NCBI GenBank assembly: GCA_011174825.1
Contig: DUEZ01000065.1
Span: 4,151 to 68,150, forward strand
Direction: 5' to 3'
DNA length: 64,000 bases
Origin: Anaerolineae bacterium
Lineage (GTDB): Bacteria; Chloroflexota; Anaerolineae; Anaerolineales; E44-bin32
Position numbers and translations under genes: made by a program. Position 1 is the first letter of the stretch, and each line of letters opens with the position of its first letter. The notes beneath the pieces were generated by a model that saw nothing but the letters and a program-made list of their open reading frames with translations, had not been told where the DNA came from and did no database searches. Shown in pieces: positions 29,261-44,336 of the stretch.

Positions 29261-29905
29261 ATGTACATAGCCATTGAGGGTGTGATCGGCGTAGGAAAGA
29301 CCACCCTGGCACGTTTACTCCAACCGGTGTTCGACGCTATCTTACTCCTCGAAGTCTTCGAGGAGAATCCCTTCCTCTCCGACTTTTATGGCGATCGCAG
29401 TCGTTATGCTTTCCAAACGCAGATCTTCTTCCTGCTCAGTCGTTACCAACAACAATATGGCGTTGTTCCACAGGCTATCGCTAAGGGTAACCTGATTGCC
29501 GATTACACTTTTGATAAGGACGCCCTTTTCGCCAGGTTAAACCTTGTGGGCGATGAGCTAGCAACGTACACGCTCGTTCATGAGGCGTTAGCCGAACGAA
29601 TTCCCATCCCCGATTTGGTCGTTTACCTGAAAGTCGATACCGATATCGCCCTGCAGCGAATTGCGATGCGTGATCGATCTTACGAACGGCTCATTGAACG
29701 GTCATACATCGAGGATCTCAATCAAGCCTACGAGGCATACTTCTCGGATCAGAAGATCTATCCAGTCTTAAAGATTGACACGAATTCGCTTAACTACGTC
29801 ACGCAACGCAATCATTTGGAGCACGTCGCCAAGCGTATCCGTGCTGCACTCGGCATACCGCCCTTCCAACCTGAGCTGCCTCTCAGTGGAGGGCCTTCAT
29901 TGTGA
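29261..29905 (+). CDS. Deoxynucleoside kinase (dAK/dGK/dCK family)
   Basis: It has the P-loop IEGVIGVGKTTL, then ENPFLSDFY, then the FQTQIFFLLSR motif and the DRS region characteristic of dNK-family kinases. Confidence 0.85.
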   Translation: MYIAIEGVIGVGKTTLARLLQPVFDAILLLEVFEENPFLSDFYGDRSRYAFQTQIFFLLSRYQQQYGVVPQAIAKGNLIADYTFDKDALFARLNLVGDELATYTLVHEALAERIPIPDLVVYLKVDTDIALQRIAMRDRSYERLIERSYIEDLNQAYEAYFSDQKIYPVLKIDTNSLNYVTQRNHLEHVAKRIRAALGIPPFQPELPLSGGPSL

Positions 29906-30894
29906 GGATCACACGCGAAACGCTGATCGAGTTGGCGCGACACGAAACAAAACAACGCGCTGCAATAGGGGACGTCATATCGGGTTATATCATCGGATCA
30001 GTGGCCAGGGATGAACCCGTATTGGGTGGAACAGCCGATATCGATCTGGTATTAATCCATCGAGGAAATCCCCCAAAAATACGTGAGATCGTTCGTCTTT
30101 CCCAGGACGTGCACCTGGATATCGCCCACCACCCACGAGATCTCTATTCTAAACCTCGGGAGTTGCGAGTTCACCCCTGGCTCGGACCTGCGATGTGTGA
30201 GCCCATATTTCTCTATGACCCTCAACATTTCTTCGAGTGGGCTCAAGCCGGCGCAAGAGGTCGCTTCTTTCGCCCTGATCACGTCTATGCTCGAGCGCGA
30301 GCCTTTCTAAAAATGTCACGTCAATCGGCATCGGTCCTAAAACTCTCCGACCGCTGGATAAAAACCTACACACGAGCCATGATGGAGGCGGCGAACGCCG
30401 TTGCGTGCCTGACGGGCTTTCCAGTTGCAGGAAGACGTATGGCCCTTGACCTTGAACAAGCCGTCAGTGATTTGGATCACCCAGAAGTATATGAAGGCTT
30501 CACCCGTCTACTTGGTGTTGAGGCGATCCAACCTAACGACACCTCCGAGTTGTTGTCTGCATGGACACGGGTCTTTGATCAAGCGAGCGAACTCAACTCC
30601 GAACCTGAATTGGCTCATTGTCGTCGATCCTATTATTTAAACGGTTTTCAAGCCCTGCTGGAAGCAGGGCGCCCTGATGCTGTTATCTGGACATTACTCA
30701 CGACCTGGGAGCGTTCCATCTATTCCCTGATATCTGCTGAACGAGCCGAACAGTTCCTGCCATTGTGGGAGAACACCTTAGAACGTCTGAGACTCACCTC
30801 TGCGCGATCCGATGCACGCAACGAAGAATTAGAGAGGTATTCAGATCTCGTTGAGGAAATCGTCGAGTTGTGGGCCGAACGAAATGGAGCCTAA
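29902..30894 (+). CDS. Nucleotidyltransferase-fold (Pol-beta-like NTase) protein with helical C-terminal domain, function unknown
   Basis: The GTG start overlaps the upstream stop (GTGA). The NTase signature is GYIIGSVARDEPVLGGTADIDLVLI (G-S...D-x-D). The C-terminal ~200 aa is helical, a KNTase-like layout. Confidence 0.6.
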   Translation: MRITRETLIELARHETKQRAAIGDVISGYIIGSVARDEPVLGGTADIDLVLIHRGNPPKIREIVRLSQDVHLDIAHHPRDLYSKPRELRVHPWLGPAMCEPIFLYDPQHFFEWAQAGARGRFFRPDHVYARARAFLKMSRQSASVLKLSDRWIKTYTRAMMEAANAVACLTGFPVAGRRMALDLEQAVSDLDHPEVYEGFTRLLGVEAIQPNDTSELLSAWTRVFDQASELNSEPELAHCRRSYYLNGFQALLEAGRPDAVIWTLLTTWERSIYSLISAERAEQFLPLWENTLERLRLTSARSDARNEELERYSDLVEEIVELWAERNGA

Positions 30895-30916
30895 ATAGAC
30901 GCTGGAGTAAAGAGCC

Positions 30917-31588
30917 ATGAAGAAGTTTGTCGCAGTCGCAGGAAACATCGGTGTAGGAAAATCTTCCCTCGTAGAATTGCTCTCCGCGCGATTGGGTTGG
31001 GAGCCATTCTATGAACCGGTAGGCGAAAACCCTTACCTCGCTGACTTCTACAAAGACATGCGCGCCTGGTCGTTTCAATCACAAATCTTCTTCCTCTCCC
31101 GAAGGCTGCGGGCTCACCGACAACTATTAGACCATCCCACTTCAGCCATTCAGGACCGCAGTGTCTACGAGGATGCAGAGATCTTCGCCTACAATCTGTA
31201 CCTACAAAAACACATGACCGAGCGGGACCACCAAACCTATCGTGAACTCTATCAAGTGCTCAGCCAATTTTTACCTCCACCTGACCTTGTCGTCTATTTA
31301 CGCGCAACCGTTGATACCCTGGTTCAACGCATCGCCAATCGAGGCCGCGATTACGAACAACTGATTGAGCGCGAGTATTTAACCCGCTTGAACTCCCTCT
31401 ACAAATCTTGGATCGAGAATTTCACCCTCTGCCCCGTGCTCACCGTTCCAGCTGATGATCTCAACTATGTCGCCTACGATAGCCATCTAGACCTGATCGT
31501 CTCAAAAATTCAAGAAAAACTCGCCGGTAAAGAGGAGGTCATTTTCGAAGACGCTGAAGTCGCTCACGTCAACAACCTTTCTTCCTAA
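30917..31588 (+). CDS. Deoxynucleoside kinase (second paralog)
   Basis: It has the P-loop AGNIGVGKSSL, ENPYLADFY, FQSQIFFLSRR and DRS. Confidence 0.85.
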   Translation: MKKFVAVAGNIGVGKSSLVELLSARLGWEPFYEPVGENPYLADFYKDMRAWSFQSQIFFLSRRLRAHRQLLDHPTSAIQDRSVYEDAEIFAYNLYLQKHMTERDHQTYRELYQVLSQFLPPPDLVVYLRATVDTLVQRIANRGRDYEQLIEREYLTRLNSLYKSWIENFTLCPVLTVPADDLNYVAYDSHLDLIVSKIQEKLAGKEEVIFEDAEVAHVNNLSS

Positions 31589-34347: not shown

Positions 34348-35355
34348 ATGGATCAACCGAAACCAACCGTCTACTTGATTTATGGGGACGACGAGTTCAC
34401 CATCGCACGCATTATCCATCAATTGCGGGAGAAGCTTGGAGACTCCACGGCAGCGGATATGAATGTCCAACGCTTCACAGCGATAGGTTTGGACATGGGA
34501 GCCCTGGAAGAAGCCTGTTCTGCGATTCCCTTTCTCTCAAACCGACGCTTGATCATCCTCGATAACGCAGAACACTTAACTCGGGGAAAATCCTGGAATG
34601 ATAACCAAAAGGAACGTTTCTTCAACTTCCTCGAAAACATGCACGAGACCACGGCCCTCGTTCTCATTGAACACGTCGACATCCAAAGCACAAAGAAGCT
34701 CGAGAACTATAAAACCCGATCGCCTTTCTTTCGATGGGCTGAACCCCTTCATCCACATAAAGCCTATCTCATTCCGTGTCCCACTCCAAAAGGAGGCGCG
34801 TTCCTGCATTGGATAATGGAGCATTGTAAGGACCTAGGCGGCGAGATTGAGCCTACTGCGGCGCATATGCTCGCTGAATTTGTCGCTGAGGACCCATTGC
34901 TGGCTGACCAAGAATTAAAGAAAATCCTTGATTACATCAACCGTGAACGTCCGATCGTTAGAGACGATGTTGAACGCCTGACCCCTTTCTACGGCCAAAG
35001 TAATGTCTTCGCCATGGTTGACGCCATAGGTCTTCGTCAAGGTAAGGATGCTCTGCATCATCTTTATCGATTGCTGGAGAATAGCGATCCTCATTACGCC
35101 TTTGCGATGATCGTGCGACAATTTCGCCTAATTCTTCAGGCACGAGAAGCGCTCGACAACGGAGAAAATCCTGAGCAGGTACTGCAATTACCGCGTTTCA
35201 TTGCCGATAAAATCAGCGCCCAGGCCCAAAATTTTTCGCTCACGGACCTCGAACGCATTTACCACAAACTGCTTGCGATAGACATAGCATCAAAAACGAG
35301 CCAAGCCTCTTACGATGTCGAACTTGATCGCTTCATCGCTGAGCTCGCGACTTAA
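34348..35355 (+). CDS. holA: DNA polymerase III delta subunit
   Basis: MDQPKPTVYLIYGDDEFTIAR... is a typical HolA N-terminus (YL.yGdd.f). I prefer the ATG at 34348 because 34321-34338 belongs to a repeat element. Confidence 0.8.
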   Translation: MDQPKPTVYLIYGDDEFTIARIIHQLREKLGDSTAADMNVQRFTAIGLDMGALEEACSAIPFLSNRRLIILDNAEHLTRGKSWNDNQKERFFNFLENMHETTALVLIEHVDIQSTKKLENYKTRSPFFRWAEPLHPHKAYLIPCPTPKGGAFLHWIMEHCKDLGGEIEPTAAHMLAEFVAEDPLLADQELKKILDYINRERPIVRDDVERLTPFYGQSNVFAMVDAIGLRQGKDALHHLYRLLENSDPHYAFAMIVRQFRLILQAREALDNGENPEQVLQLPRFIADKISAQAQNFSLTDLERIYHKLLAIDIASKTSQASYDVELDRFIAELAT

Positions 35356-35388
35356 TCACACACACCCGAAACTTTGATGCTGTACGAT

Positions 35389-35655
35389 TCAGCGAGCTGA
35401 AGCTGATCCATCACTTGATGCCACCCCCCGCTCTGTCATTCCCAACCAGAAATAATCCGGTTGTACAGTTTCACTCGTTCGCACATCAACACCTGTAACA
35501 GAACCAGGATGGTCCTCACCAGCCGTGGAGGGATGTATGACGCACAGGTTCGGTGAGCGACCATATTTGTCACGATAATAGATGGCCGCTCGTTCAATTC
35601 GGACCCCCAGGTCGAGCTGGAGATCCCCATCAAACCACAACATGCCGACTTTCAT
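35389..35655 (-). CDS. Hypothetical 88-aa protein, fourth gene of the SOS-box operon
   Basis: The ATG at 35655 lies behind GAGGAGGGG and overlaps the upstream stop (ATGA). The sequence is MKVGMLWFDGDLQLDLGVRIERAAIYYRDKYGRSPNLCVIHPS... Confidence 0.6.
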   Translation of the reverse strand: MKVGMLWFDGDLQLDLGVRIERAAIYYRDKYGRSPNLCVIHPSTAGEDHPGSVTGVDVRTSETVQPDYFWLGMTERGVASSDGSASAR

Positions 35656-35927
35656 CTTACCCCTCCTCGAGCGATGAGCACCTTTTCCAAATGCCAAGTT
35701 TCGCGTTCAATATCTTGAGAGAGCAGACAACGCATGCCGCTCGCTGTTCGCAGGCGGAAAAGCCTACGCCTCGTTACACCATTACGACGTGGCCTCGTCT
35801 CGGTATTGAATCTCTCAACGCTCCGTACACGGTGACGTCTTCCACGCCACGTGAACTCGGTGGGAAATATCCCAGAAGACATTGGGACAACTCTCACCAA
35901 TTCGCCATATTCGATGGTCGTCATCAA
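35652..35927 (-). CDS. Hypothetical ~90-aa Arg-rich protein, third gene of the SOS-box operon
   Basis: The start (TTG 35927 or ATG 35924) overlaps the upstream TGA, and GAGGAG lies upstream. The sequence is ..FPTEFTWRGRRHRVRSVERF...WHLEKVL. Confidence 0.6.
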   Translation of the reverse strand: MMTTIEYGELVRVVPMSSGIFPTEFTWRGRRHRVRSVERFNTETRPRRNGVTRRRLFRLRTASGMRCLLSQDIERETWHLEKVLIARGGVR

Positions 35928-36298
35928 CCCATCTCCTCATGCATCTCAAACTCGAACGTATCTACGAAAAAATACTTCCTTCGCTGGTCATCAGGATTCT
36001 TAACTTGTGAACAGAACATGTCCCCCGGATGATGCTCATCACTCTCGTTGATCAACCTGTGGGAATGTGTGACAATGACTTCATTCCGTGTTGAGACAAG
36101 GAACCTCCTCAATATCAACTTGATCAGCGATCCGAGTGATGCAATCAACAAGCCAGAAAGAACACCCAACAAGGCCGCTTCGAGATGAGCTTGAGAACTT
36201 GGAACGGCCTCGTACCATGTTCTGCTGCGTGCGATAAGATTTACAGCAAGCATGACTGCCACCAGGCAACTGAAGACACGAAGTATGAGAGCCGTCAT
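35924..36298 (-). CDS. Hypothetical 124-aa membrane protein (two predicted TM helices), second gene of the SOS-box operon
   Basis: The ATG at 36298 overlaps the stop of the ATPase gene (ATGA). The hydrophobic segments are ALILRVFSCLVAVMLAVNLIA and AALLGVLSGLLIASLGSLIKLIL. Confidence 0.6.
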   Translation of the reverse strand: MTALILRVFSCLVAVMLAVNLIARSRTWYEAVPSSQAHLEAALLGVLSGLLIASLGSLIKLILRRFLVSTRNEVIVTHSHRLINESDEHHPGDMFCSQVKNPDDQRRKYFFVDTFEFEMHEEMG

Positions 36299-37326
36299 TT
36301 TTCGAACTCAATCGCGGGCAACGGTGACATCCCAGTAGCACGCCAACCCGCAACGGCAAGCTTCGATGCCGTGTTCAGATCGCGTAAGCTCAACCATGCC
36401 ACGTCTGCGATGCTGACGTCAGCGTTCGAAGTGAACTGAAATCTGCCAACCGATGTCTTGCCCTTCAGAAATGCGTTCTCATCCGGCACCACCTCGACAA
36501 CCCCTCGATGATCGGCTAAATCACGCAAAGTCATAGGAAGAGGTGCCTGCGTGGCTACTAAGAAATGAACGCCTACATCAACACCAACCTGCCCAATGTG
36601 CTTTAACGCAGCAAGAGCATGTTCCTCCCGCTTGTCCGCAAGCCATCCCAAGTCATCAATCAGGAGGACCAAATGTGGGCTGGAAACACCTGCAACAAGC
36701 CTCCTACCGGCCTCCTCCGAAAGCCAGGTGAGGATTTCCTCCGCGAACTTAGGCTCAGTCGCCAGATCGGTCAATGCATGAGGCAGCGACTCGAGGACAG
36801 CCAATTCCCTCCCACCGATGTCAATCCCCAACATGCTCAATTGAGATCGACGACTGGTCAGGGCAAGGGACATCATCAGGGTGCGAATAAGCTCTGATTT
36901 ACCATACCCCTTTGGTGCATAGACGAGCAAATTCCATGTGGAGGGCTTGGTTAGATTAAAGAGCAGAGGCCGACCTTCAATGGACATACCAACTACTGCG
37001 GTCGATGCAGAAAGACCGGGCAAAGCATGCAGCAGGGGCAGCAACCTAAGTTCAGTCCCCTGTTGGAGAGGGACATCGATTGTTAACCCTTGCGATCGCT
37101 CCGCAATTCGCAAACCCGAGACCCCTATCGCCTCAGCCACCTCCTCGGCCACCTGAACGACCTTGTCTGCGCGTGTGCCAGACACTGGAGTGAGGTGGTA
37201 CCGAACCCAATGGCTGCCAACCTGACCACCCTGGACACGTGCCGGTAGATCTAACAAGGAAAGCACTCGTTCAATGCTATCCGCCTGCCGGTCAAGATAG
37301 GGACGCTGCAAGAAAGACTCACCCAC
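36295..37326 (-). CDS. Soluble FtsK/SpoIIIE-family motor-domain ATPase, no TM or gamma domain, atypical Walker A
   Basis: The GTG at 37326 lies behind GGAGGTG. The alpha/beta-domain pattern is (VQGGQVGSHWVRYHLTPVSGTRADKVVQVAEEVAEAIGVSGLRI..GLTIDVP). The P-loop is LLVYAPKGYGKSELIRT, where FtsK has GxTGSGKS. Walker B is HLVLLIDDLGWL, and VHFLVATQAP matches ..ATQRP. Confidence 0.75.
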   Translation of the reverse strand: MGESFLQRPYLDRQADSIERVLSLLDLPARVQGGQVGSHWVRYHLTPVSGTRADKVVQVAEEVAEAIGVSGLRIAERSQGLTIDVPLQQGTELRLLPLLHALPGLSASTAVVGMSIEGRPLLFNLTKPSTWNLLVYAPKGYGKSELIRTLMMSLALTSRRSQLSMLGIDIGGRELAVLESLPHALTDLATEPKFAEEILTWLSEEAGRRLVAGVSSPHLVLLIDDLGWLADKREEHALAALKHIGQVGVDVGVHFLVATQAPLPMTLRDLADHRGVVEVVPDENAFLKGKTSVGRFQFTSNADVSIADVAWLSLRDLNTASKLAVAGWRATGMSPLPAIEFEK

Positions 37327-37346
37327 TGTGCACCTCCATCAATGAT

Positions 37347-37397
37347 ATAGAATAGAACGTGTGTTCTATTCTATCAGAACATATGTTCTTTTGTCAA
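37347..37397 (-). promoter_or_regulatory. Promoter (TTGACA-N18-TAGAAT) with two GAAC-N4-GTTC LexA/Cheo-type palindromes
   Basis: The minus strand reads TTGACA AAAGAACATATGTTCTGA TAGAAT AGAACACACGTTCTATTCTAT. Box 2, AGAACATATGTTCT (37376-37389), sits in the spacer. Box 1 has 12+12 perfect arms (37347-37374) over the -10/+1 region. The GTG start is 21 nt downstream. Confidence 0.75.
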
Positions 37398-37561
37398 GCC
37401 CGAATATTTGCCATCAGACTTGAGTAGATACCATTCACAGAACAGCCTCCAAAAAATGATTTAAAAAAAATTACACTCACAAGCAGAGAGAACACCTGGG
37501 CTACTTTCTTACCCGGCTTTGGAGTAAGTTCAGCTGAACGGCGTGGGAACCTGACCATTAA

Positions 37562-37659
37562 TGTCATTCTGAGCGCCGCAAGGCGCGAAGAAACTTGTTG
37601 TTGGGAAAGAGCGTTAAATGAATTCGGAAAACGAGATCCTTCGCTCCGCTCAGGATGAC
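37562..37659. repeat. Hairpin repeat TGTCATTCTGAGCG ... CGCTCAGGATGACA
   Basis: Terminal inverted arms are visible. It explains the spurious ORF 37394-37690 (..HPERSEGS..). Confidence 0.6.
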
Positions 37660-38045
37660 ATTGGTGAAAATATCTTTCTCCAGATAACAAAATCCCTGGA
37701 CAGAATATTCAAGGCTTCGCTCATGGTGTAAATCTTGTTGAACTCAAGATGCATTATCCAGAGAATCGGCCAGAGTACTTTGCCAGAGGCGAATTCAAGG
37801 TTCGTACAAGTAAAACCGAGATCAAGTCAACCATCTAGGACGAAACAGGTTGCGAGAACGCATTATGTATTTAGGGGCGATTTGCAAACGAAAAGCAATA
37901 AGCTACTTATTCACTTTGAGGACAAATAATCCCCTCCATCCCCAGCGCCTGTAAAATCTACAGCATAACGCAATCCCTCCCGATCACCTCTACCGAGAGG
38001 TGACTCCTATGCTACAATCCAAGTCAAAGAGACAGGATAAGAAGA

Positions 38046-38891
38046 ATGCTTGACGTACGACCCTCACCCATATCAGGCACATGGTATCCGGGTGATCCGG
38101 AGGCACTCGCCCAATCGATCGACCGTCAGCTGCAGAATAGCGAGATCAGCCCAATATCCGGTGAATTGATTGGGGTGATCGCCCCCCACGCCGGACACCG
38201 CTATTCGGGCCAAGTCGCCGCACATGCATTCCGTTACCTGGAGGGACTCACTCCTGATGTTGTCGCCGTGATTTCGCCTCTTCACCACCCTCATCTCAGT
38301 CAAGTACTCACCACAGGCCATGACGCTTATGGAACACCATTGGGCTCCATACCGGTGGACCAAACATTGCTTCAGCGATTCGAAACCCAATTGATCGAAG
38401 ACGGAGGAATTGAGGTCACGTATGTCAGAAACGATGGTGAACACTCCGTAGAGATCGAACTGCCCTTCCTGCAACGCATCCTTACCCAACCCTTCCAATT
38501 GTTACCGCTGATGTTACGTGATCAATCACGACCCACCGTCGAAGCTGTTGGCCACGCATTAGGAAAAGTGTTGCGCGACCAATCTGCCATCCTTGTCGCT
38601 AGTTCTGACCTGTCCCATTTCTATCCCCAGTCAATGGCAGAACAGTATGATGCGGAGGTTCTGACCCGCGTTGAAGCCTTCAACCCATCCGCTGTCCTCT
38701 CCGCTGAAGACGAGGGATTGGGATTTGCCTGCGGACGGGCCGCGATGGCAGCTGTCCTCTGGGCTTGTGAGGACCTCGGAGCGGACTCTGTTAACGTTAT
38801 TCACCATGCCACTTCAGGCGATGTCACCGGTGACTACCATTCGGTCGTCGGATATGCAGCGGCCGTGATCTATCGTGAATTTCAAAACTGA
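38046..38891 (+). CDS. MEMO1-family protein (AmmeMemoRadiSam system protein B-like)
   Basis: It has GTWYPGDPEAL, GVIAPHAGHRYSG, and SSDLSHF with downstream His residues, which is characteristic of the family. Confidence 0.85.
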   Translation: MLDVRPSPISGTWYPGDPEALAQSIDRQLQNSEISPISGELIGVIAPHAGHRYSGQVAAHAFRYLEGLTPDVVAVISPLHHPHLSQVLTTGHDAYGTPLGSIPVDQTLLQRFETQLIEDGGIEVTYVRNDGEHSVEIELPFLQRILTQPFQLLPLMLRDQSRPTVEAVGHALGKVLRDQSAILVASSDLSHFYPQSMAEQYDAEVLTRVEAFNPSAVLSAEDEGLGFACGRAAMAAVLWACEDLGADSVNVIHHATSGDVTGDYHSVVGYAAAVIYREFQN

Positions 38892-42971: not shown

Positions 42972-44315
42972 TCAGGCTGGTATACCGACCTCATGGAAGA
43001 GCTTTTCTCGAACCAGCAACACCTGTCGCCGCAACACATCGTCGGTTTCCATGAGGTTCGTGATCTTATCGTATCCGTATATCACTGTCGTATGATCACG
43101 TCCCCCAAGTGCCTCGCCAATTTGCGGTAAGGAGGCAGATGTTTCCTCTCGCATGAGATACATAGCCACTTGACGAGGCAACGCTACCTCCCTCGATCGT
43201 TCACGGCTGAGCAACCGATCTACCTCAATACCGAACTGCCTAGCAACGACAGCAATGATTCGTTCAACAGTCAGCGTGTCGCCACGAGGCAGGAGATCGA
43301 TCAGCGCCGTTTCCACCAACTCACGGCTCAACGGAGCCCCACTCAGGTCGGAAAAGGCCAAGACTCGCGTGAGCGCACCCTCAAGTTCTCGAATATTGCT
43401 CTGCACGCGACGGGCGATAAGCTCCAGCAGCTCAGACTCTACGGATCTCCTTGCACGCTCGGCCTTCGAACGCAAGATTGCTAGCCGGGTCTCAAAGTCG
43501 GGCAACTGGATATCGGCCGTCAAACCCCATTCGAACCGTGAACGCAAGCGTTCCTCCAACGTTGCGAGCGCTTTGGGTGGTCGATCGGAGGAGATGACCA
43601 ATTGTTTATCCTGTCCATGGAGCGTATTAAAGGTATGGAAAAACTCTTCCTGTGTCGATTCCTTCCCGACAAGAAATTGAATATCATCGATCAAAAGTAG
43701 ATCAATGCGGCGATAACGTTCACGGAAGGCGTCCGTTGTGTGGGTTCGAATAGCGTTGATCAGATCGTTGGTGAATTCCTCAGAGGAAACGTAGAGCACA
43801 TTCAATCCATCTGTGGCACAAATGTGTCCAATGGCATGTAGTAAATGGGTCTTCCCTAAACCGACCCCCCCGTAAAGGAATAGTGGGTTGTATGCACGAG
43901 CTGGGCTTTCGGCAACCGCTTGGCAGGCTGCGTGAGCTAGGCGGTTGCTAGATCCAACGACAAAGCTTTCAAAAGTGTAGCGGCTGGTCAGGTTAGCTGA
44001 AAGCTTCAGGTTGCTCTCGCTACCCGAGGACGCCTTCAGAACAGGCTCAGGGGATTCATCGACATTGTCCTCATGCCACACGACGAAACGCACTTCAACC
44101 GTGCGGCCAAGGATCCCGGTCAATACCTGCTTGACGGTGGAGAGCAATCGATCTTCAAGCCAGTCACGGGCGTAGGCATTCCGTACGCCGATGACGAAGG
44201 CACCATCTTCATAAGTAAGCAACTCCGTGTCGCGCACCCAGGTATCAAATGCCGCGCGTGGCATTTCCATCTGCAGTTGTCCGAGCGCAGCTTGCCAGAG
44301 TTGCTCTGAGTTCAT
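42972..44315 (-). CDS. dnaA: Chromosomal replication initiator protein DnaA
   Basis: It has AAA+ Walker A GGVGLGKTHLLHA, Walker B LLLIDDIQF and the sensor motifs. The C-terminal DnaA signature is ..LPQIGEALGGRDHTTVIYGYDKI. I prefer the ATG at 44315, 5 nt after GGAGG; the ORF track starts at TTG 44336. Confidence 0.95.
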   Translation of the reverse strand: MNSEQLWQAALGQLQMEMPRAAFDTWVRDTELLTYEDGAFVIGVRNAYARDWLEDRLLSTVKQVLTGILGRTVEVRFVVWHEDNVDESPEPVLKASSGSESNLKLSANLTSRYTFESFVVGSSNRLAHAACQAVAESPARAYNPLFLYGGVGLGKTHLLHAIGHICATDGLNVLYVSSEEFTNDLINAIRTHTTDAFRERYRRIDLLLIDDIQFLVGKESTQEEFFHTFNTLHGQDKQLVISSDRPPKALATLEERLRSRFEWGLTADIQLPDFETRLAILRSKAERARRSVESELLELIARRVQSNIRELEGALTRVLAFSDLSGAPLSRELVETALIDLLPRGDTLTVERIIAVVARQFGIEVDRLLSRERSREVALPRQVAMYLMREETSASLPQIGEALGGRDHTTVIYGYDKITNLMETDDVLRRQVLLVREKLFHEVGIPA

Positions 44316-44336
44316 GTACACCTCCACTGATCCCAA

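Follow-up and report, generated by a model that had tools for sequence, protein, structure and literature searches.

A conserved dual-operator promoter, putatively LexA-controlled, ahead of an FtsK-like/DUF6504 operon in Anaerolineae

SOS promoters with several operators are known in E. coli (lexA, recN, the colicin genes) and in B. subtilis (lexA), and the presence of two repressor dimers on one promoter is read as tight repression with late or strong induction. Genes located beside lexA also supply small, SOS-induced membrane proteins that inhibit division: YneA in B. subtilis, ChiZ (Rv2719c) in M. tuberculosis, DivS in C. glutamicum and SidA in Caulobacter. The LexA proteins of B. subtilis and M. 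tuberculosis recognise the motif GAAC-N4-GTTC (PMC3323433), and E. coli ftsK is SOS-induced by way of the dinH promoter (PMC4080785). Here we analyse a promoter found in a 64-kb stretch of Anaerolineae DNA (64,000 nucleotides, hereafter the window), which carries a pair of putative LexA operators of the Gram-positive type. Such a pair is a known kind of cis-element; the novelty lies in its cargo, an operon for an FtsK-like protein and a DUF6504 protein.

The core GAAC-N4-GTTC found here is identical to that of the B. subtilis LexA (DinR) “Cheo box”, CGAACATATGTTCG, and of the M. tuberculosis SOS box. The likeness to the Cheo box extends to the ATAT centre of operator 1, to the overlap of the operators with promoter elements, and to lexA and recA being boxed alike (in the clade and in related contigs). 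The flanks differ, being C/G in the Cheo box and A/T here (T-AGAAC...GTTCT-A), and so does the recognition helix, which reads ISSTSVVNYYL in Anaerolineae LexA and SSSTVHGHL in Firmicutes (the latter form was met in L103). Compared with the B. subtilis and M. tuberculosis repressors, many Anaerolineae LexAs are also devoid of Gly at the cleavage bond. With the multi-operator SOS promoters it would share two repressor dimers on one promoter, but its operator 1 keeps a fixed place in the -35/-10 spacer and the distance to operator 2, further downstream, varies between 21 and 30 bp; the Anaerolineae lexA gene itself usually has a single box.

As in E. coli dinH-ftsK, a LexA-type promoter stands ahead of a DNA motor of the FtsK type, here a predicted one (PMC4080785). 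The E. coli dinH box is CTGT-N8-ACAG, whereas two Gram-positive-type boxes are present here, and the E. coli gene encodes an essential FtsK of full length, in which 4 TM segments are combined with the alpha, beta and gamma domains, whereas the product here is a 343-aa paralogue reduced to alpha and beta, with DD in its Walker B motif, which is encoded together with three small proteins. By way of analogy, the operon may also be likened to the YneA, ChiZ, DivS and SidA cases, as its second gene specifies a small, fast-diverging membrane protein under predicted LexA control, and the module adjoins lexA and recA in contigs L039 and L072; unlike the YneA-type inhibitors, this membrane protein has no LysM or other recognisable domain that we could find.

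Promoter architecture and its conservation

The minus strand from 37397 to 37347 reads TTGACA-aa-AGAACATATGTTCT-ga-TAGAAT-AGAACACACGTTCT-attctat, and continues down to 37324 with atcattgat, GGAGGTG, caca and the GTG start at 37326. The initial annotation had described a TTGACA-N18-TAGAAT promoter followed by a GGAGGTG ribosome-binding site and a GTG start at 37326, and re-reading of the sequence placed all these elements where it had put them. The features are as follows.

37392..37397, minus strand: -35 hexamer, matching the consensus TTGACA in full; in an alignment of 20 promoters each column has 2.0 bits
37376..37389, no strand: operator 1, AGAACATATGTTCT, perfect 14-bp palindrome, PSSM score 23.6 bits
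37368..37373, minus strand: -10 hexamer TAGAAT, with TGa before it as an extended -10, from the promoter scan
37354..37367, no strand: operator 2, AGAACACACGTTCT, abutting the -10, PSSM score 26.5 bits
37347-37358 and 37363-37374: arms of a perfect 12+12 inverted repeat in which operator 2 is embedded
37331..37337, minus strand: Shine-Dalgarno sequence GGAGGTG, 4 nt 5′ of the GTG; GGAGG is kept in orthologues

Both operators overlap the core promoter. Operator 1 begins 2 nt past the -35 and fills the 18-nt spacer, its final T forming, with the next G, the TG of the extended -10; operator 2 lies against the -10 and, if the start is placed from the -10 hexamer, would span the transcription start at about 37360-37362. 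A promoter scan of positions 35200-38100 returned this promoter as its top call (11/12 hexamer matches, 18-nt spacer, TG extended -10). No Rfam match was found over 35200-38200, and the search for intrinsic terminators was negative as well.

The exact motif GAAC-N4-GTTC occurs twice in the 64 kb of the window, at 37354-37367 and 37376-37389, in agreement with the earlier claim that its intergenic regions hold no other such palindrome. About 1.1-1.2 sites are expected per 64 kb by chance (shuffle mean 1.12, analytic value 1.17), so that the number of sites alone is not significant. Their clustering is: by analytic estimate, a pair 12-40 bp apart has a probability of about 6×10−4, and of about 1.6×10−6 if A...T flanks are required. 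A PSSM built from 40 orthologous operator sites detected no further site of at least 11 bits in the window, the third-best site being intragenic and scoring 9.8 bits, below the weakest true site (12.7).

Two other elements were noticed upstream. A weak, half-site-like PSSM match, AGAGAACACCTGGGCTAC, lies at 37487-37504, some 100 bp upstream of the -35, with a sub-threshold score of 8.6 bits. Further on, a REP/MITE-like inverted repeat of 16 nt, AATGTCATTCTGAGCG and CGCTCAGGATGACATT (37560-37575 and 37647-37662, 71 nt apart), sits in the ORF-poor stretch of about 650 bp that extends from the promoter to the divergent Memo gene; it has no Rfam match.

Orthologous promoters were collected by a genome scan with the family alignment A1, which gave 20 loci, 18 of them with the upstream region of a true orthologue. 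Four more loci were added by protein identity, and L022, a duplicate of L021, was left out of the count. The footprint set consisted of the window and 22 other Anaerolineae promoters, with protein identities ranging from 93%, for the orthologue in CP070708.1, to about 35%. The 23 promoters share one layout: TTGACA, 2 nt, [A/C]GAAC-N4-GTTC[T/G], a TAnAAT-type -10, then AGAAC-N4-GTTCT. The -10 is conserved across loci as TAnAAT or TATGAT. Operator 1 has an identical position in all 23 promoters, and operator 2 was found 21-30 bp downstream of it in all 23 as well, the spacings met being 21, 22, 23, 25, 26, 28 and 30 bp. As this spacing is variable, the layout does not imply that repressors bind cooperatively along one helix face. 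Both cores are exact GAAC-N4-GTTC in 19 of the 23 promoters; in the remaining 4, one core is exact and the second departs from the motif at one arm position.

The GTTC arms and the -35 hexamer have 2.0 bits of information per column, and the GAAC arms have 1.7-2.0. Values drop to 0-0.5 bits in the N4 of operator 2 (two of the four positions having 0.2-0.3 bits), in the spacers and in all sequence upstream of the -35. In the 110 bp preceding the gene start, 40 exact sites were counted in 22 loci; elsewhere, over 390 kb, only 7 were present, which amounts to 1.15 per 64 kb, the density expected by chance. Six of these 7, located in L001-L018, were inspected and all six were intragenic. The 12+12 inverted repeat, put forward in the initial annotation, is indeed perfect in the window, but it is not a conserved element: the unit kept across loci is T-AGAAC-N4-GTTCT-A, and the extension to 12+12 is peculiar to the window.

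The downstream operon and its genomic setting

The promoter precedes four genes.

36295..37326, minus strand: gene 1, putative short FtsK/SpoIIIE-like ATPase of 343 aa (PF17854 and PF01580)
35924..36298, minus strand: gene 2, 124 aa, predicted to have two TM helices; start and gene 1 stop share ATGA
35652..35924, minus strand: gene 3, all-beta DUF6504 protein of 90 aa (PF20114); its ATG overlaps the gene 2 stop
35389..35655, minus strand: gene 4, soluble protein of 88 aa, MKVGMLWFDGD...; its ATG and the stop of gene 3 share ATGA

Such start/stop overlaps (ATGA or TGATG) across the four genes indicate a translationally coupled operon.

Gene 1 comprises the alpha and beta motor domains, followed by a C-terminus modelled as a beta-hairpin and a helix (AlphaFold model, pLDDT 83). 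In Foldseek it matched best to dsDNA-bound motor domains of FtsK (E about 1×10−22), and its profile matches in the PDB are FtsK and EccC. Neither a membrane domain nor a gamma (KOPS/XerD) domain was found in the protein, which begins straight with the alpha domain. Lacking the N-terminal membrane domain and the gamma domain, it is to be regarded as an FtsK-like motor and not as a canonical FtsK. The Walker A GKS is invariant in the family, and Walker B reads hhhhDD in 19 of 20 members, where the canonical form is DE; DE is present in P0072 and in the homologue of L072, which is linked to lexA and recA. The family is made of FtsK-like proteins of about 320-350 aa, whose named members come from Anaerolineales. 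Searching 1.84 billion representatives with the family HMM returned 537 proteins at E ≤ 1×10−30; among the best 150 of these 537, most were single-stretch matches in proteins shorter than about 470 aa, and proteins of 320-350 aa filled the top.

Gene 2 evolves fast and cannot be detected by sequence beyond close relatives; its slot is occupied by a TM protein in L003 and L072, and by a 138-aa gene with no Pfam match in L021. Gene 3 is present in 14 of 21 loci, and in L072 in addition. Its model (pLDDT 85) had no significant fold match in the PDB, a word search for DUF6504 brought up only close Anaerolineae relatives, and a literature search for DUF6504 yielded no paper. Gene 4 accompanies gene 1 in all 21 orthologous loci. 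Genes 2 and 4 had no match in Pfam, NCBIfam, PADLOC or PHROGs, and gene 3, outside Pfam PF20114, had none in NCBIfam, PADLOC or PHROGs. A role as a defence system or phage function was considered and dropped, as gene 1 gave only weak, generic matches in PADLOC and PHROGs and genes 2-4 gave none.

The window belongs to the core chromosome in the neighbourhood of the origin and includes dnaA, radA, clpC, holA, holB and priA. The arrangement of a divergent Memo gene, the operon and a convergent holA near dnaA is conserved. The best plasmid and phage matches to gene 1 share about 27% identity with it and are generic FtsK motors. With a fixed chromosomal synteny across the order and no close plasmid or phage relatives, a mobile-element gene was ruled out.

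Two observations on the surroundings are reported here for completeness. Cumulative GC skew falls monotonically over positions 1-64000 with no inflection at dnaA (42972-44336), so that a skew minimum, or the origin, is not evident in the window. At 29261-31588, two paralogous deoxynucleoside kinase genes flank an ORF of about 330 aa with no Pfam match (267 aa in L154); this trio is syntenic across Anaerolineales (L021, L152-L154) and adjoins holB, DUF6391 and holA.

LexA of the clade and alternative explanations

A literature search on LexA in Anaerolineae gave nothing relevant, and LexA sequences were obtained from metagenome contigs, scanned for AGAAC-N4-GTTCT and then for codons for GYPPxxREI. 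One mid-GC group of these bait hits was marked by the recognition helix ISSTSVV-Y-L, the form of the clade being ISSTSVVNYYL. A profile of 11 ISSTSVV-type sequences (A2) then retrieved 8000 LexA homologues, in a search independent of any operator. Among the best 120 of these 8000, all named members were “repressor LexA” of an Anaerolineaceae or Anaerolineales bacterium, with PF01726 and PF00717. A scan of viral contigs with the box and GYPP pattern gave only 2 LexA-like loci, of low GC (0.26-0.35) and outside the ISSTSVVNYYL group. A large soil LexA group of high GC (0.68-0.71; L030-L104), with MTRHDAERRQRILDCIA...GYPPSVREI...STSAVHHHL, was also seen to have AGAAC-N4-GTTCT upstream.

The DNA around seven lexA genes was fetched by protein homology. 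In 6 of the 7, the promoter has an exact box 2 nt past TTGAC[AG], at the position that operator 1 occupies, following the pattern TTGAC[AG]-2 nt-GAAC-N4-GTTC-...-TATATT. The seventh has a single mismatch, GCAC...GTTC, at the same position. A second box is present 32 bp downstream in two of the seven. These seven promoters are only partly independent, since the baits required a box and the L149 lineage is that of the bait contig L088. The sample is nevertheless not confined to box-bearing genes, as L148 would have escaped the bait pattern.

Just downstream of the lexA -10, an element T[A/T]AGCACAAA[T/C]G is conserved in L025, L077, L088, L094, L145, L147-L149 and L151. Its left half, TAGCAC, resembles the one-mismatch boxes (operator 1 of L013, L148, L039), but the right half departs from GTTC. 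The element may represent a second operator that has degenerated, or else be part of the leader.

Scanning the collected Anaerolineae-type DNA with the PSSM, gene identities being confirmed by Pfam, disclosed high-scoring extra boxes just past lexA in three contigs. The module and these genes are arranged as follows in related contigs.

L073, 3291-5409: lexA, box, recA, start of an FtsK-like gene
L072, 1934-6035: lexA, box, recA, 349-aa FtsK alpha+beta protein, 2-TM protein, DUF6504 protein
L114: recA, then an FtsK-like gene
L039, 1265-2458: lexA, intrinsic terminator, TTGACA-17-TATAGT, ATAGCACAGGTGTTCTAT, FtsK-like gene

The boxes ahead of recA in L072 and L073 score 25.4 and 23.0 bits, and belong to these related contigs, not to the genome of the window. 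The FtsK-like gene of L072 has no box of its own and may be co-transcribed with recA. The physical clustering of the module with lexA and recA brings to the LexA reading a support that does not come from the motif.

The proposal made at the outset, that two putative LexA operators occlude a sigma-70-type promoter, is supported by the dual-operator footprint in 23 promoters, by clade lexA promoters with the same motif at the same position, and by the clustering of the module with lexA and a boxed recA. From these sequence comparisons we consider it probable that this is a LexA-controlled, SOS-type promoter serving a conserved four-gene operon of Anaerolineae.

A first alternative keeps LexA on the operators, but as a conventional or differently signalled repressor in this clade and not as a damage switch, in which case the operon should not be called “SOS”. 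Some cyanobacterial LexAs are reported to be repressors of that kind. What speaks for it is the cleavage bond, scored with the motif GRI[VF]A-x-xP in the 120 closest LexA clusters (proteins P0108-P0227): 53 clusters have Ser after the conserved Ala, 41 have Gly, 18 have Ala and one has His, so that 71 of the 113 scorable clusters show Ala-Ser or Ala-Ala in place of Ala-Gly. With such variation, RecA-dependent cleavage, and hence induction by damage, cannot be assumed for every member. Against it, Ser and Ala are small and such bonds may still be cleaved, the Ser (G-x-S-M)/Lys (T-L-K) dyad is retained in all 120 clusters, and a boxed recA adjoins lexA in L072 and L073, a hallmark of the canonical SOS circuit. 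We hold this alternative to be unlikely. At the same bond, the LexA of L042 was seen to have an Asp following the Ala.

A second alternative, for which we see very little room, is that the operators belong to another factor recognising GAAC-N4-GTTC, for example a local regulator of the operon. In its favour, no lexA or recA was detected within the 64-kb window by tblastn with the E. coli and B. subtilis LexA, the E. coli RecA, and clade-specific LexA and RecA; none was detected either in the 22 FtsK-like loci, searched with the E. coli and B. subtilis LexA and the E. coli RecA. However, no DNA-binding domain was detected in any of the operon proteins or a conserved neighbour, lexA genes of the clade have the motif where these promoters have it, the motif is also found upstream of recA, and its core is identical to the established Gram-positive LexA motif (PMC3323433).

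That the palindromes arose by chance, or form a structural or recombination site (dif/Xer- or FtsK-related) with no role in transcription, is hardly credible: the chance-level site count of the window and the FtsK-like nature of the downstream gene would fit, but the pair is improbable (about 6×10−4 to 1.6×10−6) and it keeps strict register with the -35 and -10 across 23 loci, and the dif/Xer reading in particular was rejected on position, the locus adjoining dnaA and not a terminus, and on conservation pattern, the conserved bases being the GAAC/GTTC arms and not a dif-like 28-mer.

Predicted regulation and significance

Under LexA control, the probable reading, repression would proceed at two places. 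On operator 1, which reaches into the TG of the extended -10, a LexA dimer would keep RNA polymerase from binding; on operator 2, which extends from the edge of the -10 across the predicted start, a second dimer would prevent initiation. Since the operators lie at differing distances from each other (21-30 bp), two independent blocks are favoured over phased cooperativity. Once LexA is inactivated, in the canonical circuit through self-cleavage that RecA stimulates after damage to DNA, the operon would be transcribed as a single unit, and the promoter, with its near-consensus -35, extended -10 and -10, should fire strongly when unoccupied. As lexA in the clade is usually single-boxed, the operon is predicted to be more tightly repressed than lexA. 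Induction would then occur only on substantial loss of LexA, as is typical of functions harmful in normal growth. The likeliest role for the operon would be DNA translocation or chromosome clearing during damage, with or without a division block.

For the Anaerolineae, the comparison points to T-AGAAC-N4-GTTCT-A as the motif that their LexA would recognise. Of the promoters in our analysis, the one most richly supplied with operators serves an uncharacterised FtsK-like operon and not a classical repair gene; the FtsK-like/DUF6504 operon would thereby be a core member of the predicted regulon, and possibly the most tightly repressed one. If the sequence evidence is read correctly, the locus would add a second FtsK-type motor under SOS control to that of E. 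coli, and it suggests for DUF6504 and the two orphan small proteins a role in the DNA-damage response. The variable cleavage bond is a separate oddity of Anaerolineae LexAs.

A broader proposal, which goes further than we can hold with confidence and which we put forward tentatively, is that the operon is a core module of SOS effectors, so far unrecognised, in Anaerolineae-type Chloroflexota, ancestrally linked to lexA and recA, more tightly repressed than lexA, and clearing or pumping DNA and/or arresting septation. It would consist of a soluble motor with the FtsK alpha and beta domains, whose DD Walker B is unusual, a 2-TM partner that evolves fast, the DUF6504 protein and the 88-aa protein. 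If true, the module would act after DNA damage in filamentous bacteria, as a split, damage-dedicated counterpart of E. coli dinH-ftsK combined with a YneA/ChiZ-like checkpoint.
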